Below, piece by piece: positions 3,144 through 47,392 of a DNA stretch of 64,000 nt. The number at the start of each line of letters is the position of its first letter. Position 1 is the stretch's first letter. This DNA is from a bacterium (GTDB taxonomy: Bacteria; Hydrothermota; Tepidihabitantia; Tepidihabitantales; Tepidihabitantaceae). Location of the stretch: contig JBAMLV010000018.1 of the NCBI GenBank assembly GCA_039793395.1, positions 9,993 to 73,992 on the forward strand, written 5' to 3'. A program made the position numbers and the translations under genes. Below the pieces are notes generated by a model. That model saw only the letters and a list, made by a program, of their open reading frames with translations. It did not search any database and was not told the DNA's origin.

Positions 3144-6154
<3,011 letters not shown>

Positions 6155-6156
6155 TT

Positions 6157-6174
6157 TCTGTTTGCCTCTTCTCC
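6157..6174 (+). other. 3' half of the 23S precursor processing stem (pairs with 3120-3137)
   Basis: See the partner feature at 3120-3137. Confidence 0.6.
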
Positions 6175-6188
6175 TTAATCTTGAAAAT

Positions 6189-6306
6189 TCCCGGCGGTGA
6201 TACCGGAGGGGAAACACCTCTTCCCATACCGAACAGAGCCGTTAAGCCCTCCAGGGCCGATGGTACTGCGCTGGCAACGGCGCGGGAGAGTAGGTCGCTG
6301 CCGGGT
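6189..6306 (+). rRNA. rrf: 5S ribosomal RNA
   Basis: TCCCGGCGGTGATACC...CCCATACCGAACAGAGCCGTTAAGCCC...GGGAGAGTAGGTCGCTGCCGGG, with helix I closing 5'/3'. A T-rich tract follows (GTTTTTGTTTTATT). Confidence 0.9.
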
Positions 6307-8158: not shown

Positions 8159-8231
8159 TGGAGCAGACCAGATTTGAACTGGCGACCTCCAGAGTGCGAT
8201 TCTGGCGCTCTCCCAACTGAGCTACTGCCCC
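8159..8231 (-). tRNA. tRNA-Ala (anticodon CGC)
   Basis: The reverse complement folds as a cloverleaf: GGGGCAG/CTGCTCC acceptor with G3:U70, anticodon loop AT-CGC-AC, T-loop GCCAGTTCAAATCTGGT. CCA is not encoded. Confidence 0.9.
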
Positions 8232-9833: not shown

Positions 9834-10946
9834 TTAATTTTCTGCCTGGAGAAGATAGCGGGCAATCGTTTCCGCACCGTTAACCGGATACCGGTTCCAG
9901 CCCGCAGTAGCCATTTCAATCAGTCTGCCCCGGGCTTTTAGCCGCTCAATCATCAGCCCGAACTTTTCTGGCTGATTGAGCGGCAGGCAGACCCCCTGTT
10001 TGAAGGCAAACTCAAAGTTTTCCCGGGCAAAAGGTCCGATATGCGGCAGCAGGGCAAATAGCGGTAGTCCAAGCCCGACCGCCCAGTTGGTGCGCTCGTG
10101 TGCTGCTGTCACCATCAGGTCAATCCGGGAAAAGAGCTCGGCGGTCCGGCGGTTTTCTTCTTTACGGGATGAAAAGACCATCGCTTTTGGCAGTTTTCGG
10201 GCAGAACCCGGACTGGTGCCGGCAAAGATCAGGGTATTGTGGTTTGAGTTCCGGGCAGAACGGACAGCGGTGAGGATGGCACGCAGATGGGGTTTCGGAT
10301 AGGCGCCTGAGGTGAAAAAGGCGATGGTCAACGGTTCACCGGATTCAAGCCGGCTGAGCCGGGATTCAAAAGCGGTTCGGGCAACGGGCAGAATTTCCGG
10401 CTCAATTACCAGTCCGGTGATAACGATGGTATCGGGTTTTACACCTAAAGACCGCAGTCGGCGGGCGGTGGATTCAACCGGGGCAAAGATGCACCAGGCA
10501 CGGTTAACCGCGGAGATTTTCGGTGCGGCAATTTCGCAATGGAGATAGGCAACCCGGCAGACCGGTGCGAGCATACGGGCATAAACCGGATGGTCAACGA
10601 GCACAATACCGGGAAAGTTTGCCAATCGGTCTCTGAGCCCGCGGTCAGAGAGCATAAGTTCCAGATTTGAGCCCCGGGTGCGCAGCCGGTTGTAGAGTGC
10701 GGTCAGGAGCCCGCCGCGGGCACCAAGCCGGTACCCAAGATATGCCAGTTGTCGGGCTGGACCAGCAGGCACAATCTTTTTAACCCCGGGCAGAAACGAA
10801 AGCACCGCGTCCAGATAGTTTGAATGGCCACGCCCGATTTCGGATGCAACTGCGAGCAGATATGGCTTCAACTGTGGCAATAGAATAGATAAACCAGCGC
10901 CGGTGTCAAATTCTATTGACCGCAACCGGACCGGTAAGTCCATCAT
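9834..10946 (-). CDS. Putative GT-B fold glycosyltransferase (MGDG-synthase/MurG-like), weak call
   Basis: An N-terminal GRGHSNYLDA motif resembles the GGGH motif of GT28-like enzymes. C-terminal DLMVTAAHERTNWAVGLGLPLFAL resembles their donor-binding region. This is motif-level similarity only. Confidence 0.4.
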   Translation of the reverse strand: MMDLPVRLRSIEFDTGAGLSILLPQLKPYLLAVASEIGRGHSNYLDAVLSFLPGVKKIVPAGPARQLAYLGYRLGARGGLLTALYNRLRTRGSNLELMLSDRGLRDRLANFPGIVLVDHPVYARMLAPVCRVAYLHCEIAAPKISAVNRAWCIFAPVESTARRLRSLGVKPDTIVITGLVIEPEILPVARTAFESRLSRLESGEPLTIAFFTSGAYPKPHLRAILTAVRSARNSNHNTLIFAGTSPGSARKLPKAMVFSSRKEENRRTAELFSRIDLMVTAAHERTNWAVGLGLPLFALLPHIGPFARENFEFAFKQGVCLPLNQPEKFGLMIERLKARGRLIEMATAGWNRYPVNGAETIARYLLQAEN

Positions 10947-14526: not shown

Positions 14527-14750
14527 TTCTGTCATTGCGAGCGGAGCGAAGCAAACCCGATGCGGCAGGGATTGCCACCTGCCTTCGGCAGAGCGCAATG
14601 ACTCACTACTTTCTGTCATTCCGAGCCCGAAGGGCGAAGGAATCTCAATTAGATTCCTCACTTCGTTCGGCATGCCCCTTCGGGTCAGATTGCTTCGGCA
14701 CTGCGTGCCTCGCAATGACGGATAAAAAAGGTGGCGCCGGAATGACAAAA
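14527..14750. repeat. Cluster of six REP/MITE-like palindromic units of the GTCATT[G/C]CGAG family
   Basis: Forward units are at 14527-14557 and 14611-14645. Reverse units are at 14570-14602, 14651-14670 (partial), 14688-14719 and 14737-14750 (partial). Each contains an internal hairpin. Confidence 0.75.
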
Positions 14751-34280: not shown

Positions 34281-34353
34281 CTGGGGCGGAAGGATTCGAA
34301 CCTTCACAACAGGATCCAAAGTCCTGTGTCCTGCCAGGTTAGACAACGCCCCA
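34281..34353 (-). tRNA. tRNA-Gln (anticodon UUG)
   Basis: The reverse complement TGGGGCG..CAGGA-CTTTGGA-TCCTG..GAAGGTTCGAATCCTTC-CGCCCCA-G folds as a cloverleaf. Confidence 0.9.
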
Positions 34354-34354
34354 A

Positions 34355-35224
34355 TTAGCTTCCGACGACAGACGGTCTTGAGTGGGTTATAATCCAGAGA
34401 TGCCCGGTATGAAACCCTGCGGCCATCGGGTCAGTTGGATATTGCAACCCATAGACCGTACTGCCGGAACCGGAGAGACCGGCAACAAATGCGCCCTTTT
34501 GTAAAAGCAGGTGTTTAACCTTTGCCAGCTGTGGATAACGGGCAAAAACCACCGTTTCAAAACTGTTTTTAACCTGCTCCGCCAGTCCCGCCAGTTCTTT
34601 CCGCCTTATTTTTAAGGCAATAATTTTAGGCGAAATACAGGGCAATGTCAATTTCCGCCGACTCTGATCCAGTTCCTGATAAGCCCAAGCAGTTGAAATA
34701 CCGAATCCAGGATAATGGATAATTACCCGCAGTTTCGGTAGTGCCAGGGGGCGCAGTTTTTCCCCCCGCCCCCGGGCAACACAGGGAACACCTTTAAGAA
34801 AAAACGGAATATCGCTGCCGATTTTGCGCGCAATGGTAGAAAGTTGCTGTGGTTTCAAAGGATGGCTAAACAACCGGTTTAGTCCGGCAAGGACGGTTGC
34901 GGCATTAGAAGAACCACCCCCCAGACCGGCGCCGATTGGGATCTTTTTGTGAATTAGAATTTCAATTCCGGTCTGAATACCACTCACGGCAAAGAAAAGT
35001 TCAGCCGCACGATAGGCAAGATTTTCCTTTTCCGGGATATTCGCTCGGGCACCGGTAGTTTTTACCCGGATTCCCCTCCGTGTTTTCTCCAGTACAATCC
35101 GGTCACCAAATTCCAGCGGCACCATTATCGTTACGATTTCGTGATAACCGTCGGGTCTTTTCCTGCCGACCCAAAGCCCGAGATTAATTTTTGCCGGTGA
35201 GACCAGCGTGATTGAATTCATCAC
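34355..35224 (-). CDS. ispE: 4-diphosphocytidyl-2-C-methyl-D-erythritol kinase
   Basis: Has SPAKINLGLWV..RPDGYHEI and the GHMP motif KKIPIGAGLGGGSSNAA. Confidence 0.9.
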   Translation of the reverse strand: MMNSITLVSPAKINLGLWVGRKRPDGYHEIVTIMVPLEFGDRIVLEKTRRGIRVKTTGARANIPEKENLAYRAAELFFAVSGIQTGIEILIHKKIPIGAGLGGGSSNAATVLAGLNRLFSHPLKPQQLSTIARKIGSDIPFFLKGVPCVARGRGEKLRPLALPKLRVIIHYPGFGISTAWAYQELDQSRRKLTLPCISPKIIALKIRRKELAGLAEQVKNSFETVVFARYPQLAKVKHLLLQKGAFVAGLSGSGSTVYGLQYPTDPMAAGFHTGHLWIITHSRPSVVGS

Positions 35225-37800
35225 CTTTCAATAAAGCAGGATGCCGGGTCAATCTGCCATTCCGGAGAGAAAAAACCGGCCGCCCGGATTCCGTGCCAGC
35301 CGAATTTCCTGACCGAGCGGTCAAAAACCATAAAGTCCGGGACTGAAGTCCCGGAACCAATGATTCCCCAGAAAAGCGACAGTCGGGTGGCGGCGGGGTC
35401 GGTGCCGAACCGGCAGAGCACCAGCCGTTGGGGATTCAAGGGGTTGGGATAAGTGACAATTGCTGCCAGGTGTTCACCGAGGTCTGTTTCATTGACAAAA
35501 ATCCTGCCCTGCCGGGTCCGCACCGGCAGGCGATTTATAATCCGTTCCGCAACTGCGTTCTGATCCGGACTGCCGAGCACAATCAGGTTACGCTCCATTG
35601 GCACCCCCCCGGTGTCCGGATAAACTTCAGCCGTGCCATTGCCAATAAGCCACCAGCGCAGACACTCCTGAGTTGCACTGTGACGCAGAAAGCCGGTCAG
35701 TTCCGGATCTTTTGTTCCGTAAACGACGGCAAAAGGAGAAAACATCACCTGCTTTGCCGGTCCGTAAGTTTCCGGTTTTTTACCAGGTTGGTTGTTTTTT
35801 CCCCGGGTGCCAGCATTCCAGCCGGTTCTATCCAGCTGGACGGTTACCGGTCTGGAGGTCTTAAACTTTCCCCTGATAACCCGGCCATCAATTTTCAGCT
35901 TCACCGTGGGGCTGTGAAGGTTCAGCCGGTCAAGGTTCAGGGTAAGCCGGGTGATATTGCTCGTATGGATGTCTATCAAAGAATCGGTAGCAAATGCTTC
36001 AATGGTGGCATCCCTGCCAACCGTTCGCACCCGGTTGATCGTCAGCCAGTAAGCACGGTTGGACTGGGCAAGGTCAGCGGTCCGGAACCTGATATGCATT
36101 GGGGCGTTTATTCGCCTTTTTTCTTTGAGAAATGATATTAACTCCTGGTCATCCACACACACCGTGCCATCAGGGTAATTCCACCAGTGCTTTACCTCTG
36201 GCACCTCCTTATAACGGTATTGATAGCCAAGCGCATTCAGCCACAGGGCAAAGGTTCGGCTGTGAATTGGCGGGACATTATCATCGTCTCCACCGTGCAG
36301 GATGAAGACCGGCAGATTGAGCGCATTATCAACCAGTGCGGGTACATTATCGGGCCGGGCTGCCATATCCCTGATGGCGAGTTTTGAGGGTTCACTGAAG
36401 ATGATAGTTCGCTGCAGGAAATTGGGAACATAAAGTGGAAATGAGGGCCAAGCGGCTGCGGGTGCGATTGCGGCAAAGCGATCGGGAGAGGTAAGACCGA
36501 TATACCAGGTGCCGTGTCCACCCATTGAATGGCCGGTGAGGTAAATTCGGTCGGTGTCAATCGGGAATGCAGCACACACTTGCTGGAGGACTTCAAAGGC
36601 ATCCAGTCTGCCCCAGTCCTGCCAGTCAAATCCGTAAGGTCGGCGATTGGTCGGACAGACGATGAATGCCCAGTCTTTTGGCTTGTAACATCCGGCTAAA
36701 TCACTCGCTTCCACGCCGGCGCCGTGTAGTGATAAAATCAGGGCGTAGGTGCGGTCTGGCTGGTAGTCCGCAGGATAGGTAATTGCGTAATACTGGGCGG
36801 AGGAGTCAATCGCGGATAGGAAGGTCCTTTTATGTGGCTGAGTTATCAGGCGGGAGCGCAATTCAATTGTGTCCGAATGTTGAAAATCACCGGTTCGGGC
36901 AGTAATTATCAGGTAATAACCAGCGGTGTCATAAGGAAGTGCCGGGAACTGGACCGGAATTGCGGGTTTTTTTACCCCGAGCGCGGGGATATTACTGATA
37001 GTGGTATCGGCAATTGGGATTGCTTCGTCGCTATCGCTCCTCGCAATGACAGAGAAAGAAGACTTGGTTTCGCTGCGCTCGTAATGACGGGGAAGGAGTG
37101 TCAGGTGGAGATGGACGTTGTTCAGGAGATTTTCCGTAGTATTTAATAGTGGAATTCCGAGCCAGCCGCGGGTTTCGGTTTCGGCGATGATGTCCGGAGC
37201 GGTAATATCACTGGTTACGCTGATGAGCGGAGCCGAAACCGGAATCAGTAAAAACCGTACCCGCTGGTCGGCATAACCGGATAGGCGGAGTATCACCCGG
37301 TTGATGCCAGAATCAATGAGCACCGGGGTCTGAAACCAGTTGTTGCCGTAGACATCACCGAGATAACTCAGGCCGTTGATGATAAAACTGCCAATTCGGG
37401 TAGCAATTGCGAGCGCCCGCGATTTTTTTGGGGAGTAAAATTCGGCACAGGCATAACCGACCGCTGCCAGTCCACTTATTCCGTAATATTTCTGAATTGT
37501 ATCCCAGCGGACATCAGGGTATTCGGCATTCAACCAGCCGGCAGAATCTATGCTGACCTGCCGCCAGCGGGCAAATCCGCCCTGAACTAATCCGGAGTTA
37601 AGAGAATCATCAGGTTTAGGTTTAAGTGTTGCCGGGTCTTCAACCGCTTCGGTAATTCCTTCCCGGGTTCCGACTGAAAATGGTCCGCAGACGAGCCACT
37701 GGCGGATGATAATTGTATCCGGAATTGAAGGCAGATTAGCGGCAAAGGTGATGACATAAGTGAATGGCAGGATTAAAAACAGCGGGATTTTTTTTGACAT
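35221..37800 (-). CDS. Large secreted alpha/beta-hydrolase (esterase/peptidase S9-like) protein
   Basis: Start moved to MSKKIPLFLILPFTYVITFAA (signal peptide). Catalytic region is LSLHGAGVEAS...IYLTGHSMGGHGTW (GxSxG)...ILHGGDDDNVP. It carries an in-frame repeat-derived segment; see the repeat feature at 37018-37088. Confidence 0.75.
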   Translation of the reverse strand: MSKKIPLFLILPFTYVITFAANLPSIPDTIIIRQWLVCGPFSVGTREGITEAVEDPATLKPKPDDSLNSGLVQGGFARWRQVSIDSAGWLNAEYPDVRWDTIQKYYGISGLAAVGYACAEFYSPKKSRALAIATRIGSFIINGLSYLGDVYGNNWFQTPVLIDSGINRVILRLSGYADQRVRFLLIPVSAPLISVTSDITAPDIIAETETRGWLGIPLLNTTENLLNNVHLHLTLLPRHYERSETKSSFSVIARSDSDEAIPIADTTISNIPALGVKKPAIPVQFPALPYDTAGYYLIITARTGDFQHSDTIELRSRLITQPHKRTFLSAIDSSAQYYAITYPADYQPDRTYALILSLHGAGVEASDLAGCYKPKDWAFIVCPTNRRPYGFDWQDWGRLDAFEVLQQVCAAFPIDTDRIYLTGHSMGGHGTWYIGLTSPDRFAAIAPAAAWPSFPLYVPNFLQRTIIFSEPSKLAIRDMAARPDNVPALVDNALNLPVFILHGGDDDNVPPIHSRTFALWLNALGYQYRYKEVPEVKHWWNYPDGTVCVDDQELISFLKEKRRINAPMHIRFRTADLAQSNRAYWLTINRVRTVGRDATIEAFATDSLIDIHTSNITRLTLNLDRLNLHSPTVKLKIDGRVIRGKFKTSRPVTVQLDRTGWNAGTRGKNNQPGKKPETYGPAKQVMFSPFAVVYGTKDPELTGFLRHSATQECLRWWLIGNGTAEVYPDTGGVPMERNLIVLGSPDQNAVAERIINRLPVRTRQGRIFVNETDLGEHLAAIVTYPNPLNPQRLVLCRFGTDPAATRLSLFWGIIGSGTSVPDFMVFDRSVRKFGWHGIRAAGFFSPEWQIDPASCFIER
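37018..37088 (-). repeat. Two tandem units of the GTCATT[G/C]CGAG repeat family embedded in frame in the hydrolase CDS
   Basis: The minus strand reads CGTCATTACGAGCGCAGCGAAACCAAG TCTTCTTTCTCTGTCATTGCGAGGAGCGATAGCGACGAAGCAATCCC. It translates in frame as RHYERSETKSSFSVIARSDSDEAIP and shares TTTCT(CT)GTCATTGCGAG with the units at 14527 and 14611. Confidence 0.65.
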
Positions 37801-37875
37801 CGGAAAGATGTTAGTTAGCACCGGTGTCCAGTCAATGATGGACCGCGAGTAATTGACCTGGGTTGCTGACGGTTT

Positions 37876-39129
37876 ATGATAATTTCTATGTGGGAAAAAG
37901 CAATCTTTGAAAAAATTACTCAGGAGATTGAACAACTGGAACCGGAAATGATTGAGATGCAGTCCCGGCTTTGTGCGCTGCCGGCAATCAGCCCGAAATC
38001 CGGAGGGGAGGGGGAAAAGGCGCGTGCCGATTATCTCCGGGGAGTACTACAATCCTGGGGATTATCTGTTGAGGAGCTGCGCGCTCCGGACCGGCTTGCA
38101 CCCTGCGGTTACCGCCCAAATCTGATTGTCCGGTTAAGCGGTAAAAGGTCTGGTCCGACAATCTGGATTATGACCCATCTGGATGTTGTGCCGCCGGGAC
38201 CACGCGCCTTGTGGCATTCAGACCCGTTTACCGCCCGGGTTGAGAACGGGAAAATCTATGGTCGCGGGGTTGAGGATAACCAGCAGGAGATGGTAGCCAG
38301 TATTTTTGCGGTTCGGGCACTGCTGAATCTTGGACTTCAACCTGAACTGCCGGTCGGACTGATGCTGGTTGCTGATGAAGAGACCGGTTCCGAATTCGGT
38401 GTTGACTACCTGCTGAAAAATCACCAGTTGTGCCGGGCTGACGACCTGGTGGTTGTTCCTGATGCCGGCAATGAGGAGGGAACTCTGCTGGAAATTGCTG
38501 AAAAATCGATCCTCTGGCTGAAGTTTACCACTTATGGACAGCAAGCCCACGGTTCTACCCCCCATCACGGGAATAATGCCCATCGTGCGGGCGCTCAAAT
38601 GCTCGTGCGGCTGGACACGGTGCTCCACGAGCATTTTAGTGCCCGGGATGAGCTGTTTACGCCTCCTGTTTCCACAATTGAGCCGACCAAAAAGGAGGCA
38701 AATGTTCCCAACATCAACACCATTCCCGGGGAAGATGTTTTTTACTTTGATATGCGGTTACTGCCCTGCTATCAGCTGGAGGAGGTGCTGAACCTGGTGA
38801 AACGGGTGGCGGGTGAAATTGAAACCGAATTCCGGGTGAAGGTACGGATTGACATTGAACAGCAGGCACCGGCAGCACCGATAACGCCAGCGGATGCACC
38901 GGTGGTGCGGTTGCTTGCGGATGCGGTTCGGGCGGTTTATGGTCGGGAGCCGGTTCCCGGGGGTATCGGTGGCGGCACAGTAGCAGCATTTTTCCGGCGC
39001 CAGGGAATCCCGGCGGTGGTCTGGGGGAAAAATGCGGGACAGGCACACAAGCCGGATGAGTTCTGTCTGATTGCCAATATGGTGGGTAATGCCAAAGTGT
39101 ATGCCCATCTTTTTGGCCGGATGGTTTGA
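37876..39129 (+). CDS. M20 family metallopeptidase (ArgE/DapE-like)
   Basis: Has IWIMTHLDVVPPG, GRGVEDNQQ and LVADEETGSEFG, with a dimerisation-domain layout. Confidence 0.85.
   Translation: MIISMWEKAIFEKITQEIEQLEPEMIEMQSRLCALPAISPKSGGEGEKARADYLRGVLQSWGLSVEELRAPDRLAPCGYRPNLIVRLSGKRSGPTIWIMTHLDVVPPGPRALWHSDPFTARVENGKIYGRGVEDNQQEMVASIFAVRALLNLGLQPELPVGLMLVADEETGSEFGVDYLLKNHQLCRADDLVVVPDAGNEEGTLLEIAEKSILWLKFTTYGQQAHGSTPHHGNNAHRAGAQMLVRLDTVLHEHFSARDELFTPPVSTIEPTKKEANVPNINTIPGEDVFYFDMRLLPCYQLEEVLNLVKRVAGEIETEFRVKVRIDIEQQAPAAPITPADAPVVRLLADAVRAVYGREPVPGGIGGGTVAAFFRRQGIPAVVWGKNAGQAHKPDEFCLIANMVGNAKVYAHLFGRMV

Positions 39130-47304: not shown

Positions 47305-47392
<88 letters not shown>

Follow-up and report, generated by a model that had tools for sequence, protein, structure and literature searches.

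Can a palindromic repeat that lands in a coding sequence be read through and kept as part of the protein? This question is raised by a 64,000-nucleotide (nt) stretch of DNA from a bacterium of the uncultured candidate phylum WOR-3 (GTDB lineage Hydrothermota; Tepidihabitantia; Tepidihabitantales; Tepidihabitantaceae; GenBank assembly GCA_039793395.1, contig JBAMLV010000018.1, forward-strand positions 9,993 to 73,992; hereafter the window, from whose first letter all coordinates are counted), in which a gene for a secreted hydrolase contains a segment resembling a cluster of repeats between genes at 14.5 kb. An initial annotation of this DNA had placed the same repeat family in frame inside the hydrolase gene, and our analyses bear this out: the segment belongs to the family, is cleanly inserted relative to orthologous genes, is read in frame, lies in a predicted loop and has counterparts in other genes. 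We interpret it, with a probability of roughly 0.85, as what remains of a small palindromic repeat, non-autonomous and of the CGTC-tagged REP (repetitive extragenic palindrome) type, that was copied into the hydrolase gene and tolerated as a translated loop.

Two repeat units in a hydrolase gene

The segment lies inside one uninterrupted open reading frame (ORF; 35221–37935, minus strand) and comprises the following features.

35221–37800, minus strand: gene for a secreted protein of the S9/alpha-beta-hydrolase fold, 859 amino acids (aa), with a signal-peptide-like N-terminus; stop codon included (ORF list, Pfam, orthologues)
37015–37095, minus strand: 27 codons for L236–P262 (LPRHYERSETKSSFSVIARSDSDEAIP), replacing a 4-residue beta-turn of the orthologues (protein alignment, codon view, census of 120 orthologues, AlphaFold2 model)
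37063–37089, minus strand: unit 1, an arm of the short form, now decayed; CGTC tag followed by ATTACGAGCGCAGCGAAACCAAG, translated as RHYERSETK (nhmmer match, E = 0.026, 10.8 bits)
37052–37062, minus strand: pyrimidine-rich leader or spacer between the units, TCTTCTTTCTC (read from the sequence)
37015–37051, minus strand: unit 2, an arm of the long form, close to consensus; TGTC tag, ATTGC-GAG-GAGCGATAGCGAC-GAA-GCAAT and CCCA tail, translated as VIARSDSDEAIP (35.2 bits, E = 5 × 10−10)

In the direction of the gene, the minus strand at 37015–37095 reads CTT CCC CGT CAT TAC GAG CGC AGC GAA ACC AAG TCT TCT TTC TCT GTC ATT GCG AGG AGC GAT AGC GAC GAA GCA ATC CCA (preceded by CTC and followed by ATT GCC), exactly as the initial annotation had quoted it, and its predicted translation includes the peptides SSFSVIAR and SDSDEAIPIADTTISNIPALGVK. 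Unit 2 is near consensus in the present gene (T-GTCATTGCGAGGAGCGATAGCGACGAAGCAAT-CCCA from 37051 to 37015, equally TGTC-ATTGCGAGGAGCGATAGCGACGAAGCAAT-CCCA), has a predicted fold of a 5-bp stem (ATTGC with GCAAT), an internal loop and a mini-hairpin, and is almost identical to arms at two loci of other genomes (L016 and L018). Unit 1 is decayed: it differs at 5 of 26 positions from the common short form of the arm, GTCATTGCGAGCGCAGCGAAGCAATC (present in L023, L064, L071 and L098), its ATTAC...CCAAG outline has lost the stem and tail feature of CGTC-tagged REPs, and alone it shows no fold of its own in RNA folding.

The second unit was thought to match intergenic units at 14.5 kb, TTTCT leader included, and both the profile and the pattern described below recover this match. 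The cluster consists of four elements.

14531–14602, plus strand: intergenic head-to-head dimer forming a full palindrome, 25 nt 3' of the stop codon of an ABC-transporter gene
14615–14674, plus strand: intergenic palindrome of the ATTCCGAG/GGAAT sub-type, as in the in-frame copy of a distant orthologue (P0048, below)
14687–14721, minus strand: lone arm GTCATTGCGAG-GCACGCAGTGC-CGAAGCAATC with a CGTC tag (pattern and profile)
14733–14746: further fragment, ..CCGGAATGAC, beside the lone arm

The same TTTCT leader also stands ahead of the units at 14531 and 14615 and of the copy in P0048. The tags are CGTC for unit 1 (37089–37086), TGTC for unit 2 (37051–37048), TGTC ahead of 14531 and 14615, and CGTC ahead of the arm on the minus strand that ends at 14719. 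The intergenic copies fold better than shuffled sequences (z about −2.4; −2.5 for the 14531–14602 dimer at −31.8 kcal/mol, −2.3 for the 14615–14674 palindrome and −2.5 for the lone arm), unlike the genic segment (z = +0.68; unit 2 alone, −0.72). The description of the insert as a palindromic repeat therefore holds for the intergenic members of the family and fails for the genic copy, whose two units are direct (head-to-tail) arms, which is itself no palindrome and for which no hairpin spanning the entire element is predicted.

Family membership was assessed with an nhmmer profile whose 165 source units all came from other genomes and none from the window. The top match of the whole window was unit 2 (37016–37052, minus strand; E = 5.2 × 10−10), followed by 14687–14721 (minus strand; E = 2.3 × 10−8), 14529–14554 (plus strand; E = 9.7 × 10−8) and unit 1 (37069–37090, minus strand; E = 0.026); this profile, of the GCGAG type, is blind to the ATTCCGAG sub-type. 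Similarly, the composite pattern GTCATTVCGAG-N6-20-GAARCAAWC occurred three times in the window (14531, plus strand; 14688 and 37018, minus strand) and never in 100 shuffles, so that the resemblance to the intergenic family, for which a formal comparison had been proposed, lies far beyond chance. The bare 11-mer GTCATTSCGAG was not significantly enriched in the window (5 observed, 2.1 expected). A generic repeat finder run over the whole window did not report the family, because its copies are too short and gapped, and Rfam returned no match for the 14.5-kb cluster (E ≤ 10) or for eight loci with canonical copies (E ≤ 1); a literature search for the core sequence of the repeat in both orientations returned nothing relevant.

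A clean insertion relative to orthologues

The host protein was compared with the best 120 of more than 5,000 homologues, all full-length (828–881 aa), whose source records call them prolyl-oligopeptidase-family peptidases of WOR-3 or Zixibacteria. The host protein has a Pfam Peptidase_S9 match (E = 3 × 10−11) and alpha/beta-hydrolase signatures, with the catalytic GHSMGG at residues 423–428; this motif is preserved, as is every other invariant column of the family. Gene order is conserved, with ispE downstream of the hydrolase gene in the P0002, P0003, P0048 and P0067 loci and the gene for an M20 peptidase upstream in the P0002 and P0003 loci, as in the window, and the compared loci are therefore orthologues. 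The closest relatives in the alignment, both syntenic, are P0002 (76% identity) and P0003 (71%). The most likely start of the host gene is the ATG at 37800, giving 859 aa. The mechanical ORF reaches 45 codons further upstream (TTG at 37935), where it runs into the 5' end of the divergently transcribed M20 peptidase gene (ATG at 37876); the ATG at 37800 is supported by the orthologues, and with this start the two genes diverge from an intergenic region of about 75 bp.

In a 26-sequence protein alignment, the 27 residues L236–P262 of the window protein stand opposite just 4 in every orthologue (for example, DTFL or NRLI), a net gain of 23 aa or 69 nt, slightly less than the approximately 25 residues originally estimated. 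The gap falls exactly at (L)PRHYERSETKSSFSVIARSDSDEA(IP) in the orthologues, between well-conserved flanks (..LNTT..V.L.L.. and ..ADT.I..IPALGVKKPA..), and is thus as clean as had been predicted. It was placed in a protein-guided codon view, a plain MAFFT alignment of the DNA of the window, P0002 and P0003 having misplaced it. A census of insertions of at least 10 aa across the 120 orthologues found extra residues at this site only in the cluster of this species; as the other 119 clusters lack the 23-aa insert, parsimony favours insertion in this lineage over deletion elsewhere, and the comparison places the event after the split from relatives that are now at most 76% identical in protein.

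The species cluster (90% identity) has four members of 859 or 866 aa, all with the insert. Three further assemblies (two NCBI metagenome-assembled genomes and one Joint Genome Institute (JGI) metagenome) carry the identical 81 nt, with 2–4 single-nucleotide polymorphisms (SNPs) over the 2,580-nt coding sequence, on contigs of 42–299 kb with the same gene order. The segment is hence part of a real genome rather than an artefact; because the four assemblies are near-clonal, their identity is uninformative on polymorphism or constraint. We also scanned metagenome contigs for the two flanks 0–30 nt apart (an empty site) or, as a filled control, 75–100 nt apart, with 0 matches each; since the control pattern matches the window yet finds nothing there, the species is missing from that collection and the scan is uninformative. 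A TCCC on both sides of the insert was considered as a target-site duplication and rejected, as it belongs to the element's own AATCCC end.

An AlphaFold2 model built on the 26-sequence alignment (mean predicted local distance difference test (pLDDT) score 78.7; predicted template modelling score (pTM) 0.82) was used for the structural check that had been suggested for a surface loop. Residues 241–257 have pLDDT values below 50 and no secondary structure and lie between strands 229–237 and 261–268, with the neighbouring 10-residue blocks at pLDDT 86–95. The insert is thus predicted to lengthen the turn of a beta-hairpin in the N-terminal, beta-rich region, turning it into a loop of 23 residues that is hydrophilic and disordered, about 160 residues upstream of the catalytic GHSMGG.

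In-frame copies in other genes

The hydrolase family contains a second, independent copy. P0048, the distant WOR-3 orthologue of 881 aa (L002, 982–3627), has a 45-aa in-frame insert at approximately residues 280–325 (RSVIPSPSVIPSEVEES...LDSLRSLGVTW), about 45 residues further along than the insert of the window protein. Its DNA is a partial unit followed by a full palindrome of the ATTCCGAG/GGAAT sub-type, as at 14615 in the window, with a compensatory stem in the right arm (ACCCC/GGGGT in place of ATTCC/GGAAT) and a partial 5' duplication, GTCATTCCGAGCCCTTCT-GTCATTCCGAG. At the same site, about residue 280, three other orthologues (P0026, P0067 and P0063; loci L125, L126 and L127) have approximately 10 extra residues, and the P0026 DNA (..CCTCGCTCGGAATCAC.. 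and ..GGCCGAAATGACA) resembles decayed right arms; these extras could mark an insertion hot spot or old remnants, neither of which is proven.

Beyond this gene family, 173 units in the 120 foreign loci listed gave 16 unit/frame combinations in long open frames, mostly spurious frames of GC-rich genomes. Two stand out, both from uncultured gammaproteobacteria and both with Pfam matches on either side of a full in-frame element: a 29-aa insert in UvrA (L103; ..GPTS-VIASKAKQSHSTGSANNGIATSPLAPRNDNN-GERSLT..) and a 26-aa insert in the glutamine-amidotransferase domain of GMP synthase, encoded by guaA (L082). Less cleanly confirmed host genes encode a PD-(D/E)XK nuclease (L067) and a TrwB-like/NUDIX protein (L030). 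In a member of the Patescibacteria, the ORF of a 524-aa multi-pass membrane protein (L041, 3691–5265, minus strand) runs into a full element at its C-terminus (..LSLRGSLATKQSPVSRNKSEIASLPSVARNDRQF), either a repeat-derived extension or an over-called stop. In the consensus arm a single frame out of six is interrupted, by a TGA (..IASLRSQ*), and the other five are open, so that a copy will probably be read through if the length it adds is divisible by three. Together, the independent P0048 copy and the in-frame UvrA and GMP synthase copies support the earlier suggestion that the element is or was mobile, in the sense of past copying.

A repeat core found in many phyla

An exact-pattern scan of one genome per species recovered at least 120 loci (L005–L124) with the two-part core GTCATTGCGAG..GAAGCAATC. 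Among the matches listed, the core occurs in at least 18 phylum-level groups, and the taxa include Alpha-, Gamma- and Deltaproteobacteria, Helicobacter, Chloroflexota, Bacteroidota, Ignavibacteriota, Cyanobacteria, Melainabacteria, Patescibacteria, Planctomycetota, Zixibacteria, Latescibacterota, Omnitrophota, Gemmatimonadales, Armatimonadetes, Spirochaetaceae, Firmicutes and Chitinispirillales. The canonical element is a palindrome of 69–122 nt (GTCATTGCGAG-x-CGAAGCAATCC .. loop .. GGATTGCTTCG-x'-CTCGCAATGAC), and the 120 foreign loci listed contain 74 full palindromes and 66 lone arms. A single arm can fold alone, as GTC-ATTGC-GA-[G..C mini-hairpin]-GAA-GCAAT-C: a 5-bp stem (ATTGC/GCAAT or ATTCC/GGAAT) leads to a GA-rich internal loop (GAG/CGAA) and then to a mini-hairpin of 7–21 nt. 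The mini-hairpin varies in sequence and length while keeping its pairing (for example, GCCGCGCAGCGGC, GGCCGAAGGCC and GACCATGTAATGGTC), with a mean of 2.16 consecutive pairs versus 1.32 ± 0.06 in shuffles. Arms come in a 26-nt form, which contains GCGAAGC, and a 32–34-nt form, often one of each per palindrome; foreign copies are preceded by C or T, and alphaproteobacterial copies end in CCAG.

Between the paired copies in L041 and L062 there are only ordinary genes and no transposase, no systematic transposase search of the window or genome having been made. In a Chloroflexus sp. (L011, 1372–1506), three identical arms stand in direct tandem, approximately 50–51 nt apart; head-to-tail arrays of lone arms, as in the hydrolase gene, therefore occur elsewhere.

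Elsewhere in the window, 23S and 5S ribosomal RNA genes lie on the plus strand at 3144–6306, with no 16S gene within the window, and transfer RNA genes lie at 8159–8231, 34281–34353 and 47306–47392, all on the minus strand.

Relation to known repeats

CGTC-tagged REPs were defined by Di Nocera, De Gregorio and Rocco (2013, BMC Genomics 14:522; PMC3733652). That paper describes an unpaired CGTC tag (variants TGTC and CCTC), stems beginning A-T, T-A and a CCA tail, a mostly intergenic location as head-to-head dimers near ORF 3' ends and the lack of a dedicated transposase, and it catalogues in-frame genic copies, many in uvrA/B/C, dnaE2 and polA. The units described here are alike in several respects: they have the unpaired CGTC/TGTC tag; unit 2 has an ATTGC...GCAAT stem (A-T, T-A first) and a CCCA tail; the 14.5-kb cluster lies 25 nt after a stop codon and holds two head-to-head dimers, the head-to-tail genic copy being atypical; and one copy was found in UvrA here too. 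The published families, CGTC-1 to CGTC-4, have an uninterrupted stem of 8–9 bp and a loop of 4–5 nt, and the five phyla listed for them do not include WOR-3 (PMC3733652). Our unit differs from them in its 5-bp stem, GA-rich internal loop and mini-hairpin; the Bradyrhizobium CGTC-1 reported there to have unusual loops, of different length, may nevertheless be the same unit. The peptides it encodes are absent from the intragenic REP list in Additional file 3 of PMC3733652, and its distribution over at least 18 phylum-level groups compares with the 5 phyla published. On this description, the repeat fits the CGTC-tagged REP super-family but not the definition of its four published families.

Other palindromic elements are also known to enter genes. 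Rickettsia palindromic elements (RPEs) lie in frame in unrelated protein-coding genes and are translated as extra peptides, and small non-autonomous repeats of the miniature inverted-repeat transposable element (MITE) kind (ERIC, Correia/NEMIS and Anabaena MITEs) occasionally form in-frame fusions with host ORFs (PMC10969869). Like RPEs, the hydrolase segment derives from a palindromic repeat in frame in a gene (+23 aa by orthologue alignment, in a predicted disordered loop); RPE-1, in contrast, is about 150 bp and confined to Rickettsia, whereas the segment is 69 nt with two direct arms, belongs to a family in many phyla and is predicted to be translated. RPE-4 has been equated with CGTC-4, and RPE-6 and the Neisseria dRS3 repeat with CGTC-1 (PMC3733652), and the link to RPEs is made through this equation of RPE-4 and RPE-6.

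MITEs resemble the family as small non-autonomous repeats with occasional in-frame host fusions but have terminal inverted repeats derived from insertion sequences and target-site duplications, neither of which was seen here. The GTAG-tagged REP/REPIN–RAYT systems share short hairpin units, often in inverted pairs, an intergenic location and insertion without target-site duplication; they differ in their tag (CGTC/TGTC here), and no RAYT association is known or was seen for the present family, RAYT not having been looked for in the genome. Classical REPs are, moreover, lineage specific, whereas the arm described here is nearly identical across phyla, which leaves the breadth and constancy of the core across at least 18 groups unexplained. 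The dRS3 repeat has the form ATTCCC-N8-GGGAAT, and its ATTCC...GGAAT core preceded by GTC is similar to the ATTCCGAG...GGAAT sub-type represented by the palindrome at 14615 and the P0048 insert; dRS3 elements, however, are simple 20-nt hairpins that serve as phage or recombinase target sites in Neisseria, and no such role is indicated here.

How the insert may have arisen

We propose that, in the lineage leading to this WOR-3 species, a repeat of the family that forms the 14.5-kb hairpin dimers was copied into the hydrolase gene. Our best guess for the copying step is a hairpin-dependent, single-strand mechanism like that of the IS200/IS605 or RAYT enzymes, which would leave no target duplication. 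As the added 69 nt are a multiple of three and five of the six frames are stop-free, the copy would simply have been translated, and the landing site, a tight turn that links two beta-strands a long way along the chain from the catalytic serine, may be the reason that it was tolerated. The hydrophilic, disordered loop would then not have been removed by selection, persisting as a neutral passenger thanks to the combination of a preserved frame, a sequence free of stops and a tolerant turn; the protein is presumably still functional, and the insert probably has no function of its own.

Several observations weigh against this interpretation. No target-site duplication or other transposition footprint is visible at the insert, including the unit borders where the initial annotation had proposed to look for one, nor at the P0048 insert, and none is evident around the foreign copies. 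The four near-clonal assemblies all have the insert and thus offer no empty-site allele of the same species, so that recent mobility is not demonstrated. Head-to-tail arrangement is reported to be negligible for CGTC REPs (PMC3733652), and the unequal decay of units 1 and 2 is unaccounted for by a single event; that unit 2 is the best-preserved copy in the window beside a decayed unit 1 hints at two events. The AlphaFold2 alignment was shallow (26 sequences), and residues 426–486 of the catalytic domain were also modelled with low confidence. Finally, the production and activity of the host protein are inferred from its gene.

The main rival to hairpin-based copying is that the segment was copied from an intergenic repeat by gene conversion, template switching or illegitimate recombination, the family then not being mobile in the transposon sense. 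The lack of a target-site duplication is compatible with this, as is the lack of a transposase between or beside the paired copies examined and of a dedicated one for CGTC REPs in the literature; both the partial 5' duplication in P0048 and the direct arrays of Chloroflexus look like products of slippage or recombination. Yet a family that occupies unrelated positions in many genes and phyla must have been copied by some efficient process, and recombination alone leaves clean insertions into unrelated sequence unexplained, for which reasons we regard this alternative as unlikely. Alternatively, the insert might have been co-opted, either as a functional loop of the secreted enzyme or with unit 2 kept as a nucleic-acid element within the gene, as could be read from the preservation of unit 2 (35 bits) despite its coding location and from the identity of the insert in all four assemblies. 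That identity is uninformative among assemblies separated by 2–4 SNPs per 2.6 kb; in addition, the model predicts a disordered loop, shuffled sequences fold as well as the genic segment does and similar inserts occur in functionally unrelated proteins, all of which makes co-option improbable.

A chance resemblance, in an ordinary lineage-specific expansion of a loop, could draw on the unenriched 11-mer and on the marginal score of unit 1 alone, but is effectively refuted by the match of unit 2 to a profile from other genomes only, by three composite patterns where none was expected and by the shared TTTCT leader and CGTC/TGTC tags. The prospect of an assembly or binning artefact, with a chimeric join through the repeat, has to be raised because repeats are classic sites of metagenome misassembly; with the sequence identical in four independent JGI/NCBI assemblies in the same gene order, and with the reading frame and the flanking conserved residues intact, we consider it negligible. 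Copying of a CGTC-tagged-REP-type repeat into the gene and its toleration as a loop thus remains our preferred explanation.

Implications

The hydrolase gene offers a clean case of a non-coding repeat turned into protein sequence, with an empty site in more than 100 orthologues, a filled site in frame and the structural context visible, and it extends in-frame REP insertion to the uncultured candidate phylum WOR-3, where the same hydrolase gene family was struck twice independently. In-frame genic copies had already been documented for the CGTC super-family in 2013, and earlier in Rickettsia, so that the idea behind the initial annotation was right without being new; the architecture of the arm and its very wide spread may be new. 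For annotation, the implication is that VIARS..EAI, HCERSEAI and ..APRND stretches in conserved proteins are repeat-derived and should not be taken for lineage-specific functional motifs.

Of wider interest than this copy is the family itself: what copies a near-invariant 30-nt hairpin module across so many phyla without a known transposase? We tentatively suggest, at rather less than even odds, that the ATTGCGAG/ATTCCGAG-type unit is an undescribed family of the CGTC super-family. It would have its own constrained architecture, in which a tag and a 5-bp stem are followed by a GA-rich internal loop, a covarying mini-hairpin and a tail, and an arm of 26–34 nt whose sequence is almost unchanged across at least 18 phylum-level groups (Bradyrhizobium, Patescibacteria, Chloroflexus, Helicobacter, Sporomusa and WOR-3 among the taxa). 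If so, the unit would have to be copied or maintained by a machinery either widely conserved or widely transferred, and in-frame copies in housekeeping genes (the hydrolase family twice, UvrA and GuaA) would be a recurrent by-product of it and a source of protein loop insertions across bacteria.

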